Shown: positions 9,907 to 60,189 of the stretch, in pieces | Layout: each line of letters begins with the position of its first letter | Position numbering within the stretch: the first letter of the stretch is position 1 | NCBI GenBank assembly: GCA_045805745.1 | Contig: JBJMKP010000001.1 | Location: 86,054 to 150,053, forward strand | DNA from: Solirubrobacterales bacterium | GTDB lineage: Bacteria; Actinomycetota; Thermoleophilia; Solirubrobacterales; 70-9 | DNA: 64,000 nucleotides | Direction of reading: 5' to 3' | Notes under the pieces: generated by a model | The model's input: only the letters and a program-made list of their open reading frames with translations | Told to the model about the DNA's origin: nothing | The model's database searches: none | Translations under genes and position numbers: made by a program

Positions 9907-11559
9907 GTGGGAGACAACCTGTCCAGTGCGGTGCGATTGCGGCGACGGGGCCTTGCCCTGCTGCTCGCTGCTGCCGCGGCGCTGAGCCTGGCGGCCTGCG
10001 GCTCGGGGTCGAGCGGGAAAGAAGGGGGCGTGCTGCGGGCGACGTTTGCCTCGTTCCCTGACTACCTCGACCCGGCGCTCTCGCACTCGCCGGAAGGGTG
10101 GTCGGCGATCTATGACACCTACGTGCCGTTGCTGACCTATAACCACGCGGCCGGCAAGGCTGGCAGCGAAGTGATTCCCGGTCTCGCCCGCTCACTGCCG
10201 AAGATCAGCGCCGACGAGAAGACCTACAGCTTTCAGCTGCGCGACGGGCTGCGTTACTCCGACGGGACGCCAGTCAAGGCCTCCGACTTCAAGCACGCTG
10301 TCGAACGGGTCTTCCTGCTCAACTCCAGCGGCTCGCCCTTCTTCACCGACATCGCCGGTGCCCAAGCGTTCGCCAAGAGCAAGCAGGGCGGGATCTCCGG
10401 GATCGCCACCGACGACAAGACCGGCGAGATCACCATCCACCTGGTGAAGCCGCGCGGCACCTTCGAGCAAGAGCTGGCGCTGCCGTTCACCGCACCGCTG
10501 CCGGCGGACACCGCCGCCGAAGATCTCTCCGGGGACCCGCCGCCCGCGACCGGGCCGTACGAGATCACCTCCTCCAAGCCAGGCCGCGGCTGGTCGTACG
10601 CGCGCAACCCCTACTGGGCGAAGGCGAACGGCAAGGCGATGCCGCAGTTGCCCGGCGGCCACGTCGACAAGATCGAGGTGACGGTGCTGCGTAACCCGGC
10701 TACCCAGGTCGCCGACGTCGAATCGGGTCGCTTCGAGTGGATGCAGAACGCGCCCCCGCCCGACCTCTACGCCTCGGTCAAGGACCAGTACGAAGGCACC
10801 CAGTTCCGGGTCGAGCCGACCGAGAGCACCTACTTCTTCTGGATGAACACCACCGAGGCGCCCTTCGACGACGTCAAGGTTCGCCAGGCGGTCAACTACG
10901 CCGTCAACCCCGAGGCGCTGGAACGAATCTACGCCGGACAGCTGGTCGGCACCCAGCAGATCCTGCCGCCGGGGATGCCGGGATACGAGAAATACGAGCT
11001 CTACCCCTATGACGTCGAAAGGGCGAAGAAGATGATCGACGAAGCCGACCCGGCCGACCGCGAGATCACCGTCTGGACCGACGACGAAGACACCCAGGAA
11101 GAAGCCGGCGCCTACTACGCCGAGGTGCTGAAAGAAATCGGCTTCGACGCCAAGCTGCAGGTGATCAACGCCGACAACTACTTCACGGTCATCGGCAACG
11201 CCTCGACCCAGGACCTCGACACCGGCTGGGCGAGCTGGTTCCAGGACTACCCGCACCCCAACGACTTCTTCCAGCCGATGCTCTCCGAAGAAAGCATCTT
11301 CCCGACCAACACCTCGAACCTGGCGCGGATCGCGGTACCGCGATTGAGCAAGAAGATCGACGAGCTGGCCGAAAAGCCGCTCGACTCCCAGGTCGAAAGC
11401 GAATACGCAGCGCTCGACAAGGAATTCATGGAACTGGCGCCGTGGGCTCCTTACGGGACCAGCACCTACCCGACCTTCGTCTCCTCGGCGATCGACCTCG
11501 ACAAGGTGATCTACAACCCGACCTTCAACCAGGACCTGACCAGCTTCCAGTTCAAGTAG
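9907..11559 (+). CDS. ABC transporter substrate-binding protein, family 5 (peptide/nickel type)
   Basis: Lipoprotein signal LSLAACGSGS and family-5 SBP-like sequence throughout. Confidence 0.85.
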   Translation: MGDNLSSAVRLRRRGLALLLAAAAALSLAACGSGSSGKEGGVLRATFASFPDYLDPALSHSPEGWSAIYDTYVPLLTYNHAAGKAGSEVIPGLARSLPKISADEKTYSFQLRDGLRYSDGTPVKASDFKHAVERVFLLNSSGSPFFTDIAGAQAFAKSKQGGISGIATDDKTGEITIHLVKPRGTFEQELALPFTAPLPADTAAEDLSGDPPPATGPYEITSSKPGRGWSYARNPYWAKANGKAMPQLPGGHVDKIEVTVLRNPATQVADVESGRFEWMQNAPPPDLYASVKDQYEGTQFRVEPTESTYFFWMNTTEAPFDDVKVRQAVNYAVNPEALERIYAGQLVGTQQILPPGMPGYEKYELYPYDVERAKKMIDEADPADREITVWTDDEDTQEEAGAYYAEVLKEIGFDAKLQVINADNYFTVIGNASTQDLDTGWASWFQDYPHPNDFFQPMLSEESIFPTNTSNLARIAVPRLSKKIDELAEKPLDSQVESEYAALDKEFMELAPWAPYGTSTYPTFVSSAIDLDKVIYNPTFNQDLTSFQFK

Positions 11560-26055: not shown

Positions 26056-26129
26056 GGTGGCAGTAGCTCAGTTGGTAGAGCTCCGGCTTGTGGTGCCGGC
26101 GGTCGCGGGTTCGAATCCCGTCTGCCACC
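26056..26129 (+). tRNA. tRNA-His (GUG) with encoded G-1
   Basis: G-1 followed by GTGGCAG/CTGCCAC acceptor, anticodon stem CCGGC/GCCGG with loop TTGTGGT, T arm GCGGG-TTCGAAT-CCCGT, discriminator C. Confidence 0.93.
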
Positions 26130-26150
26130 TTTTCTGGGATGGTCCTCTGC

Positions 26151-26702
26151 CTAGGCGTCCAGTTGCTCTCGCGCGTCAGCAATGAGGAAGTCCACCTCTT
26201 GGACGGCTTCGGTGGCCACTTCAACTGAAACATGCGGCTTGAGTTTGTTCAGTGCTTCAGCGCGAGCCTGAACAGACGCGTCCTCACCCTGTTGACGAGT
26301 GACCCAGAGTGCAGTCGCAAGGCGCTCGAGTTCGAGGACTCGACAGTTGGCAATTTGGCCCACGATCCAATCAAGGCGCGGTCCATACTTCCTCATGGTC
26401 CGCTCGAAGCGCTCCTCTAGCTCCTCGCCGCGAGGCATGGTTGCCAACCGCGGCCCATACGGCGGTGGCTGTGCCTCTCGGGTTAGTAGTCGATCGGACT
26501 GCATTGAACCCAGCTCGTCTCGCAGTTCAAAGCTGAACGGCCCGTGCTTGTAAAGGATGAAACTGAAGTCAAGAGGCACCTCTAGGAGCTCTCGAACTAG
26601 ATAGGTGGCCTTCTGGAGATGGGTCTCTCCCGCCCAAGACCCTTGCTCACGGAGTCGGCGGGTCAGGCTGATCAGGACGGCCTCTTGGGCAAGCCTGTTC
26701 AC
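26151..26702 (-). CDS. small protein with Panacea/SocA (DUF4065)-like motif pattern, coupled to the HD gene
   Basis: GETHLQKATYLV...FILYKHGPFSFELRDEL resembles the LQKLLY...W.yGPv..el pattern. GTGA overlap with the upstream HD gene. Confidence 0.7.
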   Translation of the reverse strand: MNRLAQEAVLISLTRRLREQGSWAGETHLQKATYLVRELLEVPLDFSFILYKHGPFSFELRDELGSMQSDRLLTREAQPPPYGPRLATMPRGEELEERFERTMRKYGPRLDWIVGQIANCRVLELERLATALWVTRQQGEDASVQARAEALNKLKPHVSVEVATEAVQEVDFLIADAREQLDA

Positions 26703-28093
26703 GCTCCCACCCCTTCCTCGTCAGTCTCCATGTCCTCCTCGGCGGCCTGAGCTTCGTAGGCGCTCTCGATGATCTTCTCGCGTTCGGTGTCGATCCATTG
26801 CTCGATCTCCTCGCGCTGTTCTGCTGGTGCGAAAACGTATTCGTCGCGGGAGACGGGAAGATTGGCAAGCACCGAGGACAGCGAAATCGCAGGGACGCTG
26901 CTGCCATCGCGATCAAGGACAGGGAAATCAGCATCGCCCCGCTTAGGGCTGCCTCCATACCGAATGTTTCGCTCTCCAAATGCCTCTTCGGCAGCGCGAT
27001 AAATCGCATTGACCTCGAAGGAGCTGTCTTCGGGTCGGCGCTGGTAGACCACTCGGAAATGATCCCGCTCCAGGATTCTCCGAGCTGAATCGTGTCCCGG
27101 GGCACCTCGGTCTTTGGCTGCACTTCGCATTGCGCTCGTGACCTCTGCATCGGTCAACGCAAGGTGGCCACTGACTTCGATCGGAAATTGACCACCCTCT
27201 AGCCACGCCCCTAAGAAATCCTTCAAATGAAGGTCATAGATGAGGCGGGTGGGATGGAAATAGACCTGACTGAACATAAAGTAGCGGGCGAGCCAAAGAC
27301 CCTCGGCGGACTCGATGCCTCCTCGCTCAATACCTAGCTGGGGCTCCCGCTTCGCTTCGTTTTGCTCACCGCCAGCCTCGGTCGTGGCCGCAGGGAGGAT
27401 GCGAAGGGTTTGAATCAAGCGATGGTGGTCGAAGCGACCGTATGCCACGCCGGTATGGACGCTGTCGCGCAGGAGATAGTCGATCCGATCGGCGCCAAAG
27501 GAGTCCCCAACAAGCATCTCGGCGAGGATGGCCTCCCAAGGCGAAAAGGTCAGGTCACCCCCCAATTTCTCGAGCTTCCGTGGTCCGAGGGCGATCTTGG
27601 CTATGTCCTCAGGGTCAGGCTTATGCGGCATCAAACGCCAAAGCGCTCGCATCTCCTCGGAGCGCAGGATCTCGTAGGTCATCCGCTCGTGGTCATAGCC
27701 CGCGGGCAAGAGCTCATCCTCCGCCGCATGCGAGAAGGGAAGGTGACCCAAGTCATGACAGAGAGCTGCCAGACGAAGAAGCGAGCGCGATACCTGGTCC
27801 TCAAGGCTGTTCTTCTGAGGCAGGACATCTCTGACCTCGTCGGTCACCTTGTCGAGTCGGGTTACGGTGTCGTAGATGCGGCCGACCAGCTCCATTACGC
27901 CCAGTGAGTGCTCGAAGCGGCGGTGGGAGGCACCGGGGTAGACGAGATAGGAGAGGGCGAGCTGATGAATATTTCGCAGCCGTTGAAATGGCTGCGAATC
28001 GATCACCTTCTTCTCGGAGGGATCGAAGGCGATGAAGTTATGGACTGCGTCTCGGATCTCGGGATGCTTTTTAGACACCGGGGCGCAATCCAA
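26699..28093 (-). CDS. SAMHD1-like HD-domain (d)NTP triphosphohydrolase family protein (COG1078 type)
   Basis: FQRLRNIHQL, HRRFEHSLGV, LCHDLGHLPFSH and GADRIDYLLRDS. TTG start at 28093 after AGGAGA; the alternative is GTG at 28078. The track's longer start at 28201 is unlikely. Confidence 0.85.
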   Translation of the reverse strand: MDCAPVSKKHPEIRDAVHNFIAFDPSEKKVIDSQPFQRLRNIHQLALSYLVYPGASHRRFEHSLGVMELVGRIYDTVTRLDKVTDEVRDVLPQKNSLEDQVSRSLLRLAALCHDLGHLPFSHAAEDELLPAGYDHERMTYEILRSEEMRALWRLMPHKPDPEDIAKIALGPRKLEKLGGDLTFSPWEAILAEMLVGDSFGADRIDYLLRDSVHTGVAYGRFDHHRLIQTLRILPAATTEAGGEQNEAKREPQLGIERGGIESAEGLWLARYFMFSQVYFHPTRLIYDLHLKDFLGAWLEGGQFPIEVSGHLALTDAEVTSAMRSAAKDRGAPGHDSARRILERDHFRVVYQRRPEDSSFEVNAIYRAAEEAFGERNIRYGGSPKRGDADFPVLDRDGSSVPAISLSSVLANLPVSRDEYVFAPAEQREEIEQWIDTEREKIIESAYEAQAAEEDMETDEEGVGA

Positions 28094-28268
28094 GCATCTC
28101 CTGCGGTCTGAGACATTTGCGGCACTTCTCAGGTTTCTGTGGATCCCGCCCACTAAAACTGGACTTTGCCGTCGAATACGAACATACGTTCCCATCCTCA
28201 AAGAATGACGGGCGCATCGGACGGGAAAAGCTTCTCAAGACATCCGGTGAGACCGTCATTGTTGCTGC

Positions 28269-29522
28269 TTGGTGATGTCACCTGATCAAGCTAGTCCCAT
28301 GGAGAGCCTGCCGTCTCCCCATCCTTCGCCTGGAAATGGGCAGTTTCTTCCTCGGCTGGGCTACGGCCAGCAGGGCTTGGTTGGCGTACTTGAGGCTCGG
28401 GGGATTCGGACCACCGTGGCGCCGCTCTACTTTTTGCGGGATAACCCCGAGCTCACGCTGATTCCGAACGGGCGAAAGATGGGGACCGTGCTCGATCCCT
28501 ATACCCAGCTCAGGCAGGTGGCGTGGGCTGAGCGCCCAAGCGCCTTTCGGGCTCTTAGCTTCGGAAACGACCCCGAACCTTACGAGCCCGATTCGGCCCG
28601 ACTATCTGACGAGGAGATCTTGCACCTCGCGGTTGATCCCATTAACGAGGCCAGAGGTCGCGGTGGGACTCTTCTTCTTACGACCTCCCATCGGGCTGGC
28701 GGAGTGGGAACCCGTGGACGCGATGTGGAGCTGCTGCTGGCTGAGCTCGGCCTCACTCACTTCGAGGCTGAGGGAATGCGCGAGCCGCCGCCCTTTGCGG
28801 CTGTCGACGTTGCGCGCGAGATCTACGTTGCTCTGGCGGTGCACGTGCGCGATCTCGCTTCTCCGAGTGCTCGTAGCGCCCTTGCTGAGGCCTATCTTGC
28901 CCTTGAGTCCCAAGGCCTCTGGGTCAAGATCGAGGGCTTTCACGAGCGATCCTCGCCCGAACAGATTCGAAATGGCGCCTCCTTCCTGAGTGCTTTGCGG
29001 GAGGGAGGAAAGTCGGTCGTATCTTGTGGATCAGGGCAGCTACACCTTGGCTTACTTGCTGATGATTTCTCGGTGAGTATCGGCCTCGCTGAGAATGAGC
29101 GCTTCCGCGTGCCGGCTCCCTGGCGTAGGACCAACCAGGAAGGCAAAGCCCGCGGGCGCACCCGGATGGCTTATCACCCGAAGTTTCATCGGTCGTTTCG
29201 GGTTGGAAGCGACGATGCCAGAAGAGCTTTCACCGCCGCTCCATGTGAGTGTGAACTTCACGTCGCCTCGACTCCGCCGGACGGGCAGAATGTCGCCCAG
29301 CATGCGGCCATCCTGCGGGCTGAACAAGCCCGCGAGGCCCTGGAAGGAGAAAAAGGTGATCGACGGGAGTGGGTGCTGGCCTCCTCCACGATGGCCTCTT
29401 GGGCGGCCGCGGATGCCGAGTTACCGACTGAGAGGTTTTCGGCGACCGCTAGCTATGAAGCTCTCTTTGCTGGGCTGGATGCAGGCGATGGTCTCGCTGC
29501 TAGCGAGCAAGCCGACTTCTAG
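28269..29522 (+). CDS. orphan 417-aa protein (possible TIM-barrel; CxCxxH...H motif)
   Basis: Long ORF with coding-like composition in the islet. TTG-GTG-ATG start cluster at 28269..28277. No family recognised. Confidence 0.65.
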   Translation: MVMSPDQASPMESLPSPHPSPGNGQFLPRLGYGQQGLVGVLEARGIRTTVAPLYFLRDNPELTLIPNGRKMGTVLDPYTQLRQVAWAERPSAFRALSFGNDPEPYEPDSARLSDEEILHLAVDPINEARGRGGTLLLTTSHRAGGVGTRGRDVELLLAELGLTHFEAEGMREPPPFAAVDVAREIYVALAVHVRDLASPSARSALAEAYLALESQGLWVKIEGFHERSSPEQIRNGASFLSALREGGKSVVSCGSGQLHLGLLADDFSVSIGLAENERFRVPAPWRRTNQEGKARGRTRMAYHPKFHRSFRVGSDDARRAFTAAPCECELHVASTPPDGQNVAQHAAILRAEQAREALEGEKGDRREWVLASSTMASWAAADAELPTERFSATASYEALFAGLDAGDGLAASEQADF

Positions 29523-30070
29523 TTCTCGAGCAGCAGCCGTTCGAGTACCCACTCGCTCATGGTTTGGCCGGCACCAACGGCTGCGACCTCCCAGGCGATG
29601 GCTTGCTCTAGCGGCACTTGATCGATCAACTCCTCAACATTAGAGGCGCCACATCTCGGGACGAGACGGACCGGAATAGCGACGCTGCGCGGAGCTTGCA
29701 ACACCTTGCGGTGCGCGTGACGTCCCACCGTGATCGATCGGAGATAGCGGGCGCTCGCCTCTGGTAGCGCAGTGCCCACGGATACCCAGGGGTGACTTAG
29801 TTCGCGAAGTTGTGGCAGGCGCGTTTTGAGTTGCCCCGCCTCCAGAGCAAGGGATGCCGCGACATCGACGGCAAGGCCCACGCTCGCAGCCCGTTTTGCC
29901 AAGGCCTGAGCAGTGGGAGCCGAGAGCGGCAATGCCTCATGTAGCTCGCCAGGTCGCCGCGGCGTTTCGGCATCCAACAAATCCTCGGGAGCGGGCAGAG
30001 GTGGAAGGGGATCGCTACGCAGAAGCCGTAACGCTCGGGCTGGATCGCGAGGCTTTATGGCTGCTGCCAT
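29519..30070 (-). CDS. orphan 183-aa protein
   Basis: ATG at 30070 (MAAAIKPRD). Minus-strand TATACT lies 7 nt upstream, so apparently leaderless. The stop overlaps the stop of the convergent gene (CTAG). Confidence 0.55.
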   Translation of the reverse strand: MAAAIKPRDPARALRLLRSDPLPPLPAPEDLLDAETPRRPGELHEALPLSAPTAQALAKRAASVGLAVDVAASLALEAGQLKTRLPQLRELSHPWVSVGTALPEASARYLRSITVGRHAHRKVLQAPRSVAIPVRLVPRCGASNVEELIDQVPLEQAIAWEVAAVGAGQTMSEWVLERLLLEN

Positions 30071-30099
30071 TCTAATAAGTATACCAGTATATTTATACA
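30071..30099. promoter_or_regulatory. 29-nt AT-rich divergent switch region with back-to-back -10-like boxes
   Basis: TCTAATAAGTATACCAGTATATTTATACA. TATATT lies 6 nt before the plus ATG, and TATACT (minus strand) lies 7 nt before the minus ATG. Confidence 0.55.
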
Positions 30100-30357
30100 A
30101 TGGCACGTAAGCCTTTGACGGATGAGCAGCGAGCGGAGGGTGCCCGGATTTCGGCCCATCTGCGGGAGACGCGGAGGTCGCTCGGGAGAGAGCAGGTCGA
30201 GATCGCGCGAGGTGCCGGCGTTTCGGTGGACGAGTTACGTGCGATCGAGGGACGACGGGTAGCAACGCCCTCCTTTGTCGTAATCGCCCGCCTGGCAAGG
30301 GAGCTGGAATTGGGGCTTGACCCCTTTGCTCGTGAGGTGCTTCGGTCGGATGACTAG
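30100..30357 (+). CDS. XRE/Cro-family helix-turn-helix protein
   Basis: RETRRSLGREQVEIARGAGVSVDELRAIEGRRVATPSFVVIARLAREL. Confidence 0.8.
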   Translation: MARKPLTDEQRAEGARISAHLRETRRSLGREQVEIARGAGVSVDELRAIEGRRVATPSFVVIARLARELELGLDPFAREVLRSDD

Positions 30358-30426
30358 CTAGGTCGGCGCTCAGCCGGGTTTCACTGAAGCTGCTCGATTT
30401 GAGCCTCCGCGGATTACGCTGACGCG

Positions 30427-31566
30427 GTGCGCTTTCGCCCACAGCTGGACATAGGTGCCGAGGCTCCGGCGGCTGGCTGGGGATGGGTAGCGACGGTGGG
30501 GGTCGTCGGGACGGCGACGTTGGCCGTCTATCCGCTGAAGTCGGTGGCGCCGGTGGTGTCTTTGGGGGTCGTCTACATCCCTGGGGTGCTGCTGGTCTCG
30601 AGCTTGTGGGCTTGGCGGCTTGGGCTGGTGGCGGCGGTGGCGAGCGCCTTGGCCTTCAACTGGTTCCACCTGCCGCCGACGGGGGAGTTCGGGATCGCTG
30701 CCGACAAGGATGCGGTGGCCTTGGTGGTGTTTGTGATCGTCGCTCTCGCTAGCAGCTCGCTGGCCGAGGTCGCTCGGGCTCGGGCCGGGGAGGCGGAGCG
30801 GCGGCGGGAGGAGACCGAGCAGGTGCTGGCTCGCTTGCAGGAGCTGGCGGAGGAGCGGGACCGGATGGAAGGGGAGGCGATCGAGGCGGGCGCCCTGCGG
30901 CGCAGCGACGAGCTGAAGACGGCGCTGCTGCGCTCGGTCTCGCATGACCTGCGGACGCCGCTGACCTCGATCATCGCCGCGGGGACGGCGCTCGACTCTC
31001 CCACGCTGACCGAGGAGGAGCGCCATCAGCTGAGCGAGGCGGTGGTCGCCGAAGGGGGGAGGCTCTCGCGCCTGGTCGAGAACCTGCTCGACGTCTCGCG
31101 GCTGGAGTCCGGCTTGGCGGAACCGCGGCTGGAGCCGGTTGACCTGGCCGGTGTTCTGGGGGCGGCTCGGGAGTCCCTCGGCGAGGACGCCGCTGCGGTC
31201 AGGCTCGGGATCGACGCCGAGATCTCCGCCCTCACCGCCGACCCGGTCCAGCTCGAGCGTGCCTTCGCCAACCTTCTCGCCAACGCGGTCCGCCACGGCG
31301 GCGGGCAGCCGGTCCTGGTCCGCGCCCGCGAGGTCGGCGGCCGCCTCGTCGTCCGCATCGTCGACCGCGGCCCTGGGGTCCCGGAGCCGGAGCGGAAGCG
31401 GATCTTCGAACCCTTCTACCGCCGCGACGACGGCGGCGGCTCCGGCCTCGGCCTCTCGATCGCGCGCGGCTTCATCGAGGCCAGCGGCGGCGAGATCGCG
31501 GTCGAGAGCGTGCCCGGCCAGGGCAGCACCTTCGTCGTCTCCTTCCCGCTCGGGGGGGAGCGGTGA
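30427..31566 (+). CDS. KdpD-family sensor histidine kinase lacking the N-terminal KdpD/Usp sensor domains (DUF4118-HisKA-HATPase)
   Basis: DUF4118-like TM block (FNWFHLPP), H-box SVSHDLRTPLTSI, N-box NLLANAVRHG, G-box GSGLGLSIARG. In-frame stop at 30400. Confidence 0.88.
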   Translation: MRFRPQLDIGAEAPAAGWGWVATVGVVGTATLAVYPLKSVAPVVSLGVVYIPGVLLVSSLWAWRLGLVAAVASALAFNWFHLPPTGEFGIAADKDAVALVVFVIVALASSSLAEVARARAGEAERRREETEQVLARLQELAEERDRMEGEAIEAGALRRSDELKTALLRSVSHDLRTPLTSIIAAGTALDSPTLTEEERHQLSEAVVAEGGRLSRLVENLLDVSRLESGLAEPRLEPVDLAGVLGAARESLGEDAAAVRLGIDAEISALTADPVQLERAFANLLANAVRHGGGQPVLVRAREVGGRLVVRIVDRGPGVPEPERKRIFEPFYRRDDGGGSGLGLSIARGFIEASGGEIAVESVPGQGSTFVVSFPLGGER

Positions 31567-40154: not shown

Positions 40155-42419
40155 GTGCTGTCGTGGTTGGCGCTGGGTTGCGGTCTGCTCGCCTCGCTCC
40201 TTGCCCCCGGGCTTGTCGCGGCCGCCCCGTCGTTCGACGCCCACGGGAGCGTCGAACAGGTCTACGCGACCGGCCTTCCGGCGGGCGCGCAGGTGTCTCT
40301 CTACGAGAGCGAAGGGCACGAAGTGGCGAGCCGGAACGCGAACGAACTCGGCGGGACGCTCTTCCGCAACGTCGCTCCGGGCTCCGGCTACAGCGTCGGC
40401 CTGACCGCGAACGGGCCGGAATCGGGTCCGCTGCAGGTCCTGACGACTCAGTCGGCCCCGCCCAGCACCGCCCTCTACGGCCAGTCGATCCCCTCCAGCG
40501 GCTACGGGTACCTGACCACCCGCGACGGGACCAAGCTGGCGATCGACGTCCACCCGCCGCAGGACGTGACGCACGTCCTGCCGGGGGTCGAACTGCCGCC
40601 GCTGCCGAGCGGCCCGACGCCGACCCTGATCGAGTACTCCGGCTACGGGTACGCCAATCCGGCCGGGCCGGAGAGCGGGATCTCGATCCTCGCCAACCTG
40701 ATGGGATTCACGGTGGTCGACGTCAACATGCGCGGCACCGGCTGCTCGGGTGGCGCCTACGACTTCTTCGAGCCGCTGCAGAGCCTCGACGGCTACGACG
40801 TGGTCGAGACGATCTCCAACCAGCCTTGGGTCCTGCACCACGAAGTCGGGATGATGGGGATCTCCTACGGCGGCATCAGCCAGCTCTTCACCGCCGCCAC
40901 CCGGCCGCCGCACCTGGCCGCGATCTCACCGCTCTCGGTGATCGATAACACCCAGACGACGCTGTATCCGGGCGGCATCCTCAACACCGGCTTCGCGCTC
41001 GAATGGGCCAAAGAGCGGGTCCACGACGCCGAAGCCGCCTCCGCGACCAGCGGCCAGGCATGGGCGAACAAACGGATCGAAGAAGGCGACCAGACCTGCG
41101 CCGCCGACCAGGCCCTGCATCCCGAGGCGGTCGACCTGCTGAAAAAGGTCGAAGAAAACGACCACTACAAACCCGAGGTCGCCGACCCGCTCTCGCCGAT
41201 CACCTTCGTCGACAAGATCGACGTGCCGACCTTCATGGCCTGCCAGTGGACCGACGAGCAGACCGGCGGCCACTGCCCGACCCTCGTCCGGCACTTCACC
41301 GGGACGAAAAAGAAGTGGTTCACCTTCACCAATGGCACCCACGTCGACTCGCTCGACCCGGCGACCTTCAACCGCTGGTTCGACTTCCTCCAGCTCTATG
41401 TCGCGAAGCGGCCTCCGATCCTTGCCTCGGCGGCGGTCAAAGCCGCGGCGCCGCTCGTCTACCAGGAAGCGATGGGGATACCCGGGGTGACGCTGCCGCT
41501 CGATCCGATCCAGCTGCAGCCGACCTATGGGCTGGCGCTGGCCGCCTTCGAAAACCAGAAGCAGGTCCGGGTCCTCTTCGACAGCGGCGCCGGCGGTCTC
41601 TCCCCGGGCCGTCCCTACCCCGGCTTCGAGAAGTCCTTCGACTCGCTGCCCGTTCCCGGCACCCAGGCCAAGGCCTGGTACCTCTCGCCGGGGGGCAGCT
41701 TGAGCAGTGCACCGCCCGCCGCCGCCCAGGCCGACGAATTCACTTGGGACGCAGGCGCGCTGCCGCGGACCGACTTCAGCGGCGATACCGCCGCCGGTGA
41801 AGGCGGCCTCTGGACCGCCCTGCCCGAATACCACTGGGCGCAGAGCCCGGCGGGGAGCGCCGTCTCCTACCTCACCGCTCCGCTCAGCGCCAGCACCGCG
41901 GTGATCGGCGCCGGGGCCGTGAACCTCTGGGTCCGCTCCTCGACCCCCGACGTCGACCTGCAGGCGACGATCAGTGAGGTGCGGCCCGACGGCAAGGAGA
42001 CCTTCGTCCAGAACGGTTGGGTGCGGGGCAGCGAGCGCAAGCTCGACGCCGAAAAGAGCACCGCGCTGGAGCCGGTCCTGAGCCTGAGGGAAGCCGACGA
42101 ATCGCCGCTGCCTTCCGACCAGTTCGTGCCGGTGACGATCCCGCTCTACTACGAGGGCCACGCCTACCGCGCCGGCTCGCGGATACGGGTGACGATCGCC
42201 GCCCCGAACGGCACCCAGCCGATCTGGGCCTTCGACCACACCAAGCCCGAAGGCACCGCCCAGGTTGCGATCGCCTATGGCGCCGGCACTCCATCCAACC
42301 TCCTGCTTCCGGTCGTGCCCGGGGTCAGCGTGCCGACCGGCTTGCCGCCCTGCCCCGGACTGCGGGGAGAGCCGTGCCGCGCCTACGAAGCCGTCGCGAA
42401 CCAGCCGGCAGCGCCCTGA
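40155..42419 (+). CDS. CocE/NonD family hydrolase (X-Pro dipeptidyl-peptidase S15-like), secreted
   Basis: Signal peptide, VNMRGTGCSGG and GISYGG nucleophile motif. Confidence 0.85.
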   Translation: MLSWLALGCGLLASLLAPGLVAAAPSFDAHGSVEQVYATGLPAGAQVSLYESEGHEVASRNANELGGTLFRNVAPGSGYSVGLTANGPESGPLQVLTTQSAPPSTALYGQSIPSSGYGYLTTRDGTKLAIDVHPPQDVTHVLPGVELPPLPSGPTPTLIEYSGYGYANPAGPESGISILANLMGFTVVDVNMRGTGCSGGAYDFFEPLQSLDGYDVVETISNQPWVLHHEVGMMGISYGGISQLFTAATRPPHLAAISPLSVIDNTQTTLYPGGILNTGFALEWAKERVHDAEAASATSGQAWANKRIEEGDQTCAADQALHPEAVDLLKKVEENDHYKPEVADPLSPITFVDKIDVPTFMACQWTDEQTGGHCPTLVRHFTGTKKKWFTFTNGTHVDSLDPATFNRWFDFLQLYVAKRPPILASAAVKAAAPLVYQEAMGIPGVTLPLDPIQLQPTYGLALAAFENQKQVRVLFDSGAGGLSPGRPYPGFEKSFDSLPVPGTQAKAWYLSPGGSLSSAPPAAAQADEFTWDAGALPRTDFSGDTAAGEGGLWTALPEYHWAQSPAGSAVSYLTAPLSASTAVIGAGAVNLWVRSSTPDVDLQATISEVRPDGKETFVQNGWVRGSERKLDAEKSTALEPVLSLREADESPLPSDQFVPVTIPLYYEGHAYRAGSRIRVTIAAPNGTQPIWAFDHTKPEGTAQVAIAYGAGTPSNLLLPVVPGVSVPTGLPPCPGLRGEPCRAYEAVANQPAAP

Positions 42420-58035: not shown

Positions 58036-60189
58036 TCAGGACCCGCTCTCCGTCGCCACCTGCGGCGCCTCACGCTCGACCTCGATGCGGGGGAGGATCC
58101 GCTCCAGCCAGTCCGGGATCCACCAGTTGCGCGGGCCGAGCAGCTGCATTACCGCCGGCACCAGGACCATCCGCACCAGGGTGGCGTCGAGGAAGATCGC
58201 CGCCGCCAGCCCGATCCCGAAGAGCTTGAGGAAGACTTCGGGGGAGGCGACGAAGGCGAGGAAGACGACGACCATAATCGCCGCCGCCGCGGTGATCACC
58301 CGGGCGGTCTTGGCGAGGCCGTCGGCGACCGCCCGGCGGGTGTCTTCGTCCTTCAGGTACTCCTCGCGGATCCGCGAGATCAAGAAGACCTCGTAGTCCA
58401 TCGATAAGCCGAAGAGGATCGCGAACATCATCACCGGCATGAACGGCGCTATCGGCACTTCGTGGTCGATCCCGATCAGTTCGCCGACTGCGCCGCCCTG
58501 GGCGACGAGGGTCATCACCCCGTAGGCGGCGCTCACCGAGAGCAGGTTCATCACCGCTGCCTTGAGCGAGATGAAGGGGGAGTGGAAGGCAACCAGTAGC
58601 AGCAGGAACGAGAGCCCGACGACGCCGGCGATGAACCACGGCATGCGGCCGGTGATGAAGGAGCTCTGGTCCTCGAGCGCGGCGTTGACTCCGCCGACCA
58701 GGACGTTGATGCCCGAGTCGCCGACCGCGGCCGGGATCACCGTTCCGCGCAGCCGGTCGACCAGTTCCGAGGTCGCCTCGTCCTGGGGCGAGGTGGTGGG
58801 GATGACGGTGACGATCGCCGCGGTGTCGTCGGAGTTGAAGCGCGCGGCCGGGACGTAGGCAACACCCTCCTCTTCCCGCAGGGCCGAGACGAGGCCGGCA
58901 ACGGCCGCCTTCCCTCCCGAGTCGGGCAGTTCGACGGCGACCACCAGCGGCCCGTTGGCGCCAGGCCCGAAGCCCTCGCTGATCAGGTCGTAGGCCTGGC
59001 GGGTCATCGTGTCCGGCTGGTCGTTGCCGGCGTCGGGGAAGCCGAGGCGCATGCCGAGCGCCGGGGCGGCGAGCGCCAGCAGGATCGCGGTGGCGACGAT
59101 CGCCGCGGTCCAGGGGCGTCGCTGCACGGCGTGGCTCCAGCGGGCGGCGGGCGATTCGCCGTCTTCCTTGGCGTCGAGGCTGCGGCCTAGAAGCGGGATC
59201 CGCAGGCGGTCGACGTTCGGCCCGAGGTAGGAGAGCAGCGCTGGCAGCAGGGTGATCGAGGCCAGCATCACGACCAGCACCGCGAGCGCGGCCGAGATCG
59301 CTACCCCGTACATGTACGGCAGCCCGGTGAGGAAGAGGCCGAGGATCGCGACGACGACGGTGCAGCCGGCGATGATCACGCTGCGCCCTGCGGTGGTGAC
59401 CGCCTCGACCACCGCGTCGTGGCGGTCCTTGCCGTCCTTCATCGCCGAGCGGAAGCGGGTCAGGACCAGCAGCGCGTAGTCGATGCCGACGCCGATCCCG
59501 ATCAGCCCCGAGACCGCCGTGGTCCAGTTGGGGACGTCGATCACGTTTGCCAGTAGGACGATCAGCCCGCCGGAGGAGATGCCGAGGCCGACGAGGGCGA
59601 TCGCCAGCGGCAGCCCGGCGGCGACCAGCGAGCCGAAGGCGATCAGCAGCACGATCGCCGCGCCGAGGAAGCCGAGGCCCTCCGGGCTGCTCGATTCCTG
59701 GGCGGTGTAGATCGCTTCGCCGCCGAGCTTGATCTCGAGGCCGCCGGCGCTGTTCGATTCGGCCGCGTCGATCAGTTCTTCGCCCTGCTCCTTCTTCACC
59801 TGCCAGCCGGGCACGGTCAGAGGCAGGGTGGTGGTGGCGATCGTGCCGTCGTCGGAGACCCGGATCGCGTTGCGCGATTCGATGTCCTCGATCCCTTCGG
59901 TCTGCTTAAAGAAGGCGTTCATCCGGCGCTGCGAAGCCGGGCTCTTCACCCCGGCGGGGTCTTTCCAGACGACGTAGATTTCTTGGCCCGAATAGCCCCC
60001 GAACTCGCGTTCGGTCAGATCGCTCGCCGCCTTCGAATCCGAGCCCGGGGTGTTGTAGTCGGCTTCGTACTCTCCGGCGAAAGCGGAGCCGAGGCCGATC
60101 ACGACGACGGTCGCGACGATCCAGGCGAGGACCATGCGGCCACGGCGGCGGTAGGCGATATCGGCGAGGCGGGCGAGATGACGGGTCAT
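58036..60189 (-). CDS. MMPL family (RND superfamily) transporter
   Basis: 717 aa with two 6-TM bundles. GIGVGIDYALLVLTRF and GLSMDYEVFLISRIRE motifs. Confidence 0.9.
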   Translation of the reverse strand: MTRHLARLADIAYRRRGRMVLAWIVATVVVIGLGSAFAGEYEADYNTPGSDSKAASDLTEREFGGYSGQEIYVVWKDPAGVKSPASQRRMNAFFKQTEGIEDIESRNAIRVSDDGTIATTTLPLTVPGWQVKKEQGEELIDAAESNSAGGLEIKLGGEAIYTAQESSSPEGLGFLGAAIVLLIAFGSLVAAGLPLAIALVGLGISSGGLIVLLANVIDVPNWTTAVSGLIGIGVGIDYALLVLTRFRSAMKDGKDRHDAVVEAVTTAGRSVIIAGCTVVVAILGLFLTGLPYMYGVAISAALAVLVVMLASITLLPALLSYLGPNVDRLRIPLLGRSLDAKEDGESPAARWSHAVQRRPWTAAIVATAILLALAAPALGMRLGFPDAGNDQPDTMTRQAYDLISEGFGPGANGPLVVAVELPDSGGKAAVAGLVSALREEEGVAYVPAARFNSDDTAAIVTVIPTTSPQDEATSELVDRLRGTVIPAAVGDSGINVLVGGVNAALEDQSSFITGRMPWFIAGVVGLSFLLLLVAFHSPFISLKAAVMNLLSVSAAYGVMTLVAQGGAVGELIGIDHEVPIAPFMPVMMFAILFGLSMDYEVFLISRIREEYLKDEDTRRAVADGLAKTARVITAAAAIMVVVFLAFVASPEVFLKLFGIGLAAAIFLDATLVRMVLVPAVMQLLGPRNWWIPDWLERILPRIEVEREAPQVATESGS

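Follow-up and report, generated by a model that had tools for sequence, protein, structure and literature searches.

A mobile five-gene cassette of Solirubrobacterales with a predicted HD nucleotide triphosphohydrolase, a modelled transglycosylase-fold protein and an SOS-box-like palindrome

Results

A lower-GC islet of five genes abuts a tRNA-His gene

A 64,000-nucleotide (nt) stretch of DNA from a Solirubrobacterales bacterium (assembly GCA_045805745.1, contig JBJMKP010000001.1, positions 86,054 to 150,053 of the forward strand; hereafter the window) contains an islet of five genes, designated A to E, that lies between a tRNA-His gene and a sensor kinase gene. We describe here the composition, gene content, relatives and probable regulation of this islet, whose coordinates are collected in Table 1. 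A sliding profile of guanine-plus-cytosine (GC) content gave values of 0.555-0.635 over ∼26.1-30.4 kb and of 0.67-0.75 in both flanks; the islet as a whole (60.1% GC) compares with 69.8% for the 10 kb to its left and 69.7% for the 10 kb to its right. At third codon positions the GC content (GC3) is 0.62-0.67 in the five islet genes and 0.89-0.96 in five flanking genes. The stop codon of gene A begins at 26151, 21 nt beyond the 3' end of the tRNA-His gene, and the composition returns to flank level at the right border, the kinase gene from 30427. A preliminary description of this DNA, made from the letters and their open reading frames, had reported a sharp compositional drop near the tRNA-His gene with recovery at a KdpD-like kinase gene, and these measurements bear it out. 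The kinase gene (30427-31566) encodes DUF4118, HisKA and HATPase_c domains only and is followed by genes for an OmpR-type regulator and Kup; its product corresponds to a KdpD-type kinase reduced to its C-terminal half, the N-terminal KdpD/Usp sensor half being absent.

Genes A and B are read leftward, C rightward, D leftward and E rightward (A<- B<- ->C <-D ->E). At the A/B junction the sequence GTGA holds both the GTG start of A (26702-26700) and the TGA stop of B (26701-26699), and the stops of the convergent genes C and D share CTAG at 29519-29522. The five genes are those that the preliminary description had listed, both overlaps that it had pointed out are exact in the sequence, and no integrase gene lies within the islet, in agreement with its statement.

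Table 1. Features of the islet and its borders (positions are those of the window)
Feature	Position	Strand	Basis or remark
Lower-GC islet	26131..30426	.	60.1% GC vs ∼70% in the flanks
tRNA-His (GTG), left border, 3' end towards the cassette	26056..26130	+	ARAGORN; Rfam RF00005, 68 bits
Gene A, 183 aa, YwgA/DarG-C-terminal-like (Panacea-like)	26151..26702	-	DarG models, motifs, overlap with B
Gene B, predicted SAMHD1/EF1143-type HD dNTP triphosphohydrolase, 498 aa	26699..28195	-	Pfam, PDB similarity
SOS-box-like palindrome CGAACATACGTTCC (CGAAC-N4-GTTC[G/C])	28179..28192	.	Overlaps codons 2-6 of B
-10-like hexamer CATTCT, 6 nt before the ATG of B	28202..28207	-	Putative promoter; A2 and T6 invariant in the alignment
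Symmetric block ATGACGG...CGGAyG-N17-CATCCG...CCGTCAT between B and C	28204..28259	.	Inverted repeat, conserved columns
-10-like hexamer CATTGT, 9 nt before the conserved GTG of C	28257..28262	+	Putative, from the alignment
Gene C, ∼416 aa, undescribed TGT-like TIM-barrel family	28272..29522	+	AF2 model, Foldseek, zinc site
Gene D, 183 aa, undescribed family	29519..30070	-	28 homologues, AF2 model, CTAG overlap with C
Face-to-face promoters of E (CTGCCA-18-TATATT, +) and D (GTGCCA-17-TATACT, -)	30064..30106	.	Promoter scan
24-bp palindromic operator, consensus GATAAnTATACCAGTATAnTTATC, over both -10 boxes	30074..30097	.	Conservation
Gene E, 85-aa XRE/Cro-type HTH regulator	30100..30357	+	HTH_31, PADLOC HTH_VI, NCBIfam RstR-family

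The five genes form a fixed unit

Related loci were collected by protein look-ups, a species-genome scan, a metagenome scan and look-ups starting from homologues of A; 13 came from relatives of the C protein, 17 from the metagenome scan and 2 from homologues of A, and individual loci are cited below by number (L001 and so on). A pattern scan of 185,579 species representatives yielded 7 matches, all of them metagenome-assembled genomes (MAGs) classified as Solirubrobacterales, Solirubrobacteraceae, Thermoleophilia or unclassified Actinomycetes. In a clustered protein collection we found 67 homologues of C (43-100% identity), every one from a metagenome or MAG; the window itself also derives from a Solirubrobacterales MAG. 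The order and orientation A<- B<- ->C <-D ->regulator were identical in all related loci, and A, B, C and D were present together in 20/20 loci with sufficient flanking sequence; the flanks themselves vary between loci. The five genes are therefore a fixed unit, whose four transcription units (A-B, C, D and E) stay linked in all related loci, and co-occurrence beyond the source genome, as the preliminary description anticipated for a genuine module, is established for A to D. Apparent frameshifts or early stops were seen in C (L005, L011, L033/L034) and at the 5' end of B (L004, L008, L029, L030); these may be assembly errors (long-read) or real decay.

More remote homologues of C (E values of 1e-21 to 1e-69 to the family profile) keep the convergent D gene and a divergent small regulator gene and change the partner. 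In L014 the partner is a 612-residue HD protein, with no A; in L016 and L017 it is a 386-residue protein with weak PD-T7-5 (5.9e-9) and PD-T7-1 matches; and in L015 neither an HD nor a PD-T7-5-like partner lies within reach. Since the remote loci retain C, D and a regulator and swap the partner, the conserved core is C-D-regulator. We conclude that this triad is ancient and that the HD gene (with A) is an effector that was recruited or fixed in the Solirubrobacterales clade. The earlier treatment of the five genes as one set thus holds for their co-occurrence but not for the invariant core, to which HD(+A) is one of several partners. The settings of the remote triads are typical of defence or mobile elements. 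At positions 245-3609 of L016 (and also in L017) the triad of C, D and a winged helix-turn-helix (HTH) gene stands directly downstream of the gene for the 386-residue protein, and SEC-C/DUF5677 and DUF433 genes follow.

B is a predicted SAMHD1-type dNTP triphosphohydrolase coupled to a small DarG-C-terminal-like partner

Gene B has a conserved leaderless ATG at 28195, and its conserved catalytic body can be read from a GTG at 28078 (459 residues). The upstream ATG is in frame in 19/23 loci and the codons W-L-D before the shorter start are conserved, which rules out a spurious extension; B probably begins 39 codons upstream of the shorter start, at 28195. The protein contains PF01966 (3.5e-11) and PF19276 (3.3e-8). 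Among structures in the PDB it is closest to the Aquifex protein 2hek (4.9e-44 over residues 48-433, ∼390 residues), followed by Enterococcus EF1143 (2o6i, 4.3e-24) and SAMHD1 (∼1e-20), and these matches back the SAMHD1-like assignment of the preliminary description. The metal-binding residues H57, H108-D109 and D197/D200/D205 are invariant among 12 homologues, and B is predicted to be a catalytically competent deoxynucleoside triphosphate (dNTP) hydrolase.

The product of A matches the PADLOC model of DarG (7.4e-10, model positions 164-318 of 329) and the NCBIfam DarG model (7e-9), at 35-37 bits against a curated cut-off of 250; a profile of A run against the PDB returned noise only. Its invariant motifs are GETHLQKATYL and FILYKHGPFSFELRDEL, and an invariant YKHGPFSFEL was compared, by eye alone, with the GPV-type signature of Panacea domains (PMC8832971). 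Several homologues carry the label YwgA at JGI. Gene A adjoins B at every locus with both ends visible, and from the overlapping start and stop codons A is predicted to be translationally coupled to B. Dataset S1 of Kurata et al. 2022 (PMC8832971) lists a predicted PanAT cluster, T34, with an HD protein (YdhJ/COG1078) as putative toxin; in T34 the toxin gene precedes the antitoxin gene with a -4 overlap (Kurata et al. 2022, PMC8832971). The A-B layout matches T34 exactly, with the HD gene first, the small gene second and a 4-nt overlap.

C belongs to a new family with a predicted TGT fold

Residues of C are numbered here according to the 417-residue open reading frame from 28269; translation probably starts at the conserved GTG at 28272. 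The AlphaFold 2 (AF2) model of C is of high quality (predicted local distance difference test, pLDDT, 90.6; predicted template modelling score, pTM, 0.90), and in a Foldseek search of the PDB with this model the best 50 matches were all Zymomonas tRNA-guanine transglycosylase (TGT). The top match had an E value of ∼4e-7, a probability of 1.0 and template modelling (TM) scores of 0.52/0.58 at ∼10% identity. In BFVD the best named match was a putative viral queuine tRNA-ribosyltransferase. The model thus provides a fold for the 417-residue protein that the preliminary description had recorded as a divergently transcribed orphan and put forward for structural comparison. Its divergent orientation stands, but it is no orphan: besides the 67 close homologues, a HMMER search of 1.84 billion representatives identified 190 clusters of the family.

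Across 52 diverse members of the family the sole invariant residues are those of a putative zinc site, C326-x-C328-x-x-H331...H345, and Q83, R89, H141, R151, R183, Y209 and G272 are near-invariant; D76 belongs to the majority consensus. TGT enzymes bind zinc through CxCxxC...H. The motif of C is CxCxxH...H and lies in the C-terminal position equivalent to the TGT zinc site. C had no Pfam match (PF01702 included) and none in NCBIfam or PADLOC, its profile found nothing in the PDB, and hhalign against E. coli Tgt gave a probability of 0.1%. With these sequence searches negative, the TGT assignment is drawn from the fold alone, and C is, on the evidence of its model, a new family with a TGT fold. 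E275 and E277 are candidate catalytic acids that were picked by strand order, not by alignment with TGT, and they are conserved in the close family only.

D resembles a tandem ribbon-helix-helix protein and E is a Cro-type regulator

D, the second protein described earlier as an orphan, is indeed convergent with C and shares the CTAG, but it too has relatives, in at least 28 sequence clusters. Its AF2 model, of moderate confidence (pLDDT 76), shows a conserved disordered N-terminal peptide followed by two strand-helix-helix units that resemble ribbon-helix-helix (RHH) folds, so that D looks like a tandem RHH protein as modelled. A fold search returned no match with E<0.3, and 6/28 members of the family matched NikA-like RHH weakly. 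DndE, relaxosome and NikA-like signals for D were considered and set aside as too weak beyond a hint of RHH. The protein annotation of the source NCBI record lacks D: the accessions given there to C and E are consecutive (MFL5871972.1 and MFL5871973.1). E, correctly anticipated as a Cro-like HTH protein, is an XRE-type protein that matches HTH_31 (8.6e-7), PADLOC HTH_VI (1.2e-5) and the NCBIfam RstR-family model (7.9e-5). In a sister clade the slot of E is occupied by a ∼115-residue protein with weak winged-helix signals.

An SOS-box-like palindrome and a 24-bp palindrome mark the two control regions

The regulatory DNA of the islet, absent from the preliminary description, comprises an SOS-box-like operator on B and a palindromic operator between D and E. 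The SOS-like palindrome occurs in exactly one copy between B and C in 29/30 loci. The LexA motif of Streptomyces has been defined experimentally as tCGAAC-N4-GNNCGa (PMC9380542); the box of B fits this consensus, which is that of Streptomyces and may not be the host's. The N terminus of B encoded under the box reads M-[G/R]-T-[Y/H/C]-V-R. The central four bases of the box vary and thereby alter the amino acid, whereas the half-sites never vary and valine is encoded by GTT throughout, even though the hosts are GC-rich; this pattern argues for constraint at the level of DNA. We infer LexA-type repression of the B-A operon through the box. One further exact GAAC-N4-GTTC, the only other in the window, starts at 60001, inside an MMPL transporter gene. 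Additional boxes seen in L008 were rejected as SOS boxes when they proved to be tRNA T-arm-like direct repeats.

The promoters of D and E face each other across a gap of 29 bp and are the only sigma70-like sites in the whole islet (2 vs 0.6 expected). Each -35 box lies inside the other gene, and each -10 box is 6-7 nt from an ATG, so that both transcripts are predicted to be leaderless. With the -10-like hexamers close to the starts of B and C, all four transcription units appear to be leaderless. No terminator-like site was seen between C and D. The 24-bp palindrome over the -10 boxes of D and E is near-invariant in 11 loci whose proteins share only 40-90% identity (0 expected by chance). It is present in 12/12 loci with an XRE-type E and in no locus without one; because the palindrome co-varies with E, E is its likely binder, and we consider it probable that E binds this operator.

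The cassette moves between genomic sites

In six loci the 3' end of a tRNA gene points towards the cassette from within ∼0.5 kb, namely in the window and L019 (His), L001 (Met), L013 (Val), L004 (Asp) and L022 (Leu/Glu). Three loci have att-like direct repeats. In L001 a perfect 48-bp repeat (48/48), spanning the tRNA-Met gene from the anticodon loop to 5 nt beyond its 3' end, encloses the five genes alone in 4.7 kb, with no integrase. In L004 a repeat of the tRNA-Asp 3' end (24/25) encloses a PDC-S73-like gene pair together with the cassette, again with no integrase. In L008 a ∼48-nt direct repeat surrounds a major facilitator superfamily (MFS) gene and the cassette; ARAGORN detected no intact tRNA gene in this locus. 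The L008 repeat copies lie at 2736-2808 and 10511-10583 and contain the tRNA T-arm-like sequence CGAACCCACGTTCG. The island of L004 (3131-10325) carries nSTAND3 and Mrr_cat genes that match the PADLOC candidate system PDC-S73 (7.8e-63 and 1.2e-45). In the window itself, a repeat search and a local alignment of the tRNA-His gene to the right border gave results no better than shuffled controls. We asked in passing if a TGT-like protein might aim at the tRNA genes that are TGT substrates, and dropped the idea (His and Asp account for 2 of ∼7 independent events; hand-estimated P ∼0.12).

Over the left flank, the tRNA-His gene and the islet, L019 and the window are 80-90% identical in nucleotide sequence, but the right flank of L019 is wholly different, and synteny therefore breaks exactly at the right edge of the islet. 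The view that these are ancestral housekeeping genes of the clade whose GC content happens to be lower can appeal to the shared tRNA-His site and syntenic left flank of L019. Against it, the right flank has already changed in that same locus, the other loci all differ in their flanks and three have att-like repeats, GC3 is ∼30 points under that of the flanking genes, and the family is very rare in the genome collection. The changed right flank of L019, the varied flanks and the att-like repeats refute an ancestral origin, to which we give next to no credence, and support acquisition, as the preliminary description had proposed: the cassette occurs in unrelated contexts, by six different tRNA genes, and moves horizontally between genomic sites. 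Exact look-ups of two proteins that flank the islet in the window gave no match.

Tyrosine integrase genes adjoin the cassette in L003, L005 and L036. In L003 (767-5786) a 503-residue tyrosine integrase and a 1161-residue protein without Pfam or PADLOC match, possibly island cargo, are encoded next to it. In L036 (8044-12546) it stands beside an integrase, an N6/N4 DNA methyltransferase and a Replic_Relax protein, which suggests that this copy is carried by a larger integrative or mobilisable element. The islet is best explained as a small mobile element that lacks an integrase, of a kind that stays behind at tRNA genes or is mobilised into them.

One could instead suppose that the element integrates and excises through a module of its own, made up of C, D and E, with C as a novel type of zinc-dependent DNA-processing enzyme, D as an RHH directionality or accessory factor of NikA/TraY type and E as the repressor. 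An enzyme, an RHH protein and a Cro-like repressor under SOS control do resemble the control region of a mobile element, the weak NikA-like and relaxosome matches of D and the near-invariant R89, H141, R151, R183 and Y209 of C would fit, and such a module would account for integrase-less islets at tRNA genes and for att-like repeats around integrase-less elements in three loci. However, a TIM-barrel/TGT fold is found in no known recombinase, the matches of D are not significant, and the window copy is without a detectable repeat. In addition, canonical tyrosine integrases adjoin the cassette in the three loci named above, and long tRNA-derived repeats are the hallmark of tyrosine integrases acting in trans or of integrase loss. 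We regard self-mobility through C, D and E as very improbable.

Elsewhere in the window (41793-41877, - strand), ARAGORN calls a tRNA-Gln (CTG) of 85 nt, which is unusually long for a tRNA-Gln.

Discussion

We propose that the cassette is an SOS-controlled conflict or abortive (stress- or phage-response) module, a reading to which we assign a probability of about 45%; the defence or toxin-antitoxin role is inferred from context and analogy only. In unstressed cells, a LexA-type repressor would occupy the SOS box over the first codons of the leaderless B-A operon, while E would silence the overlapping promoters of D and E through the 24-bp palindrome. DNA damage, prophage induction or phage replication would lead to LexA cleavage and derepression of B and A. 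B would then hydrolyse dNTPs, so that replication of the invader or of the cell stalls. A would bind B and restrain or tune it, in the manner of an antitoxin with its toxin or of CloB with CloA. This role of A is suggested by two analogies, the function of the DarG C-terminal domain and the Clover system, for which experiments established that the HD dGTPase CloA is toxic by itself and that CloB, a nucleotidyltransferase encoded in the same operon, keeps it in check (PMC12265719). C, as a putative zinc enzyme with a TGT fold, may act on DNA or RNA by exchanging or excising a base or nucleotide, and D may counter it by binding and by convergent transcription; the latter is suggested by the overlapping stops and the lack of a terminator-like site between the two genes.

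Several observations weigh against this proposal. None of the genes reaches the curated threshold of a defence model in PADLOC or NCBIfam. B matches Dgt-type dGTPase models over the HD core alone and below their cut-offs (34 bits for PADLOC dGTPase; 20.9 for NF041026, cut-off 400; 33.5 for TIGR01353, cut-off 152). The name YwgA implies no toxin-antitoxin role, and none of 12 members of the A family matched Pfam PF13274 (DUF4065), even at E≤10; the Panacea/SocA-like label that A had received is thus backed by the DarG C-terminal models but not by Pfam. C has no detectable sequence similarity to TGT or DpdA, and since E275 and E277 are not conserved across the superfamily, transglycosylase chemistry is only putative for C. 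No relative of C and no cassette was found among IMG/VR viral contigs. The box upstream of B could be bound instead by D, which is also present at every locus. All organisms in which the cassette was found, soil Solirubrobacterales only, are uncultured. Finally, SOS control is equally typical of cargo for DNA repair or damage tolerance.

The last point leads to an alternative, which we consider unlikely though a serious contender, that the cassette is SOS-induced cargo of the DNA damage response with a logic like that of mobile imuAB-dnaE2 or umuDC cassettes. The HD enzyme would trim or sanitise the dNTP pool under replication stress, the TGT-fold enzyme would remove or exchange damaged bases, and D and E would be mere regulators. 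The LexA-type box at the B promoter in 29/30 loci fits this view well, as do the lack of a defence model at its curated threshold and the absence of the cassette from viral contigs; moreover, the YwfO family, to which relatives of B belong, has been discussed as housekeeping hydrolases of non-standard nucleotides (PMC4993169). For repair, however, a partner of toxin-binding type would be superfluous, as would a switch with two regulators and convergent, overlapping genes. The cassette also travels in tRNA-integrated islets with PDC-S73-like nSTAND/Mrr genes, remote triads adjoin a PD-T7-5-like gene, and a general repair function would be expected to be more widely distributed than 7/185,579 species representatives.

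The B/A and C/D pairs, or one of them, might otherwise be purely selfish, stabilising the islet like toxin-antitoxin pairs, following segregation or excision, with no benefit to the host. Pairs of an HD protein and PanA already figure among predicted toxin-antitoxin loci, and the genes of such pairs typically overlap as A and B do. D, with its DNA-binding RHH part and its conserved disordered peptide, is built like a type II antitoxin, and the cassette persists as the sole content of att-bounded islets. On the other hand, C and D are convergent and not co-transcribed, which is atypical of type II pairs, and an SOS box plus a separate Cro-like switch exceed the needs of simple addiction. We judge a purely selfish role to be improbable. 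Many toxin-antitoxin systems act in defence (PMC10440598), and for this reason the selfish interpretation is compatible with the conflict module proposed above.

The remote loci open a further possibility, namely that the convergent C-D pair with its divergent regulator is the core of an undescribed conflict system. In it a zinc-bearing TGT-fold enzyme would serve as effector or marker by exchanging or excising a base in DNA or tRNA, a tandem-RHH antagonist would oppose it, and the effectors alongside would be swappable: an SOS-controlled SAMHD1-like dNTPase with a Panacea-like brake in this cassette, a long HD protein or a PD-T7-5-like protein in others. We hold this to be rather unlikely; if true, C would be the first case, apart from the Dpd modification system, of a transglycosylase fold employed as an effector of immunity or as a toxin.

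Comparison with known systems places the A-B pair near several of them. Like PanAT cluster T34, it consists of a SAMHD1-type HD gene followed by a small Panacea-type gene in toxin-antitoxin order with a 4-nt overlap, but T34 comprises two-gene loci of Firmicutes whose partner matches DUF4065, whereas A misses DUF4065 and matches the DarG C-terminal models only, and in the cassette A and B come in fixed association with three more genes and an SOS box. Clover shares with it an HD dNTPase effector and a partner from the same operon, and Clover immunity acts through the nucleotide pool (PMC12265719). In contrast, CloB makes the inhibitory p3diT, while A shows no feature of a nucleotidyltransferase and more probably acts by direct protein binding; B lies on the SAMHD1/EF1143 branch with no demonstrated relationship to CloA, and Clover is without genes C, D and E. 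The anti-phage dGTPase Dgt (PADLOC dGTPase, NF041026) has the same HD triphosphohydrolase fold and logic of dNTP depletion, but B belongs to a different subfamily with an HD_assoc_2 tail and aligns with it over the HD core only. A is homologous to the DarT-binding C-terminal half of DarG; unlike DarTG, the islet has no gene for a DarT ADP-ribosyltransferase or a macrodomain, and A covers only positions 164-318 of the model.

For the remainder of the cassette the resemblances are looser. The model of C is closer to TGT than to any other PDB chain, and its zinc site is in the equivalent C-terminal position, but C differs from TGT and DpdA in lacking sequence similarity and PF01702, in having CxCxxH...H rather than CxCxxC...H, and in a TM score of only ∼0.52-0.58; nor do the islet or related loci contain DpdB (ParB-like), DpdC, preQ0 or restriction genes of the Dpd system. 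CIMEs, known from streptococci, are cis-mobilisable att-flanked elements. L001, L004 and L008, with tRNA 3'-end repeats around short cargo without a recombinase, resemble them and tRNA-linked defence islands, whereas the window copy has no repeat. LexA controls the switches of some mobile elements, for example together with RstR in CTX-phi; the Cro/RstR-like E (a weak RstR match) and the predicted host SOS box recall such a switch, but the cassette has no phage genes.

In the literature we found no paper that joins SAMHD1-like HD genes to TGT-like genes or to LexA, and PADLOC has no system to which the set corresponds. Neither the five-gene architecture nor its SOS box nor the att-bounded miniature islets are described in the libraries and papers searched. 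The preliminary description was accordingly right that the five-gene combination has no name, except that the pairing of an HD gene with a Panacea-like gene had already been predicted (Kurata et al. 2022): the A-B pair adds a member to a predicted kind. C and D each represent a family that has no annotation, and the possibility that the C-D core is novel is a real one.

If the proposed logic is true, the cassette joins dNTP-depletion immunity, as in SAMHD1, Dgt and Clover, to a hyper-promiscuous neutralising domain of Panacea/DarG type and to host SOS signalling, and it would give a function to two unannotated families, a TGT-fold zinc enzyme (∼190 clusters) and its RHH-like partner. For predicted HD-PanA pairs it provides compact constructs of 4.3-4.7 kb with clear operators. 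Should damage-response cargo be the right description, the cassette would constitute a new accessory module of the SOS response, one that is mobile. The att-bounded, integrase-less islets of five genes show in addition how a module spreads between tRNA sites in a poorly studied order of soil actinobacteria.

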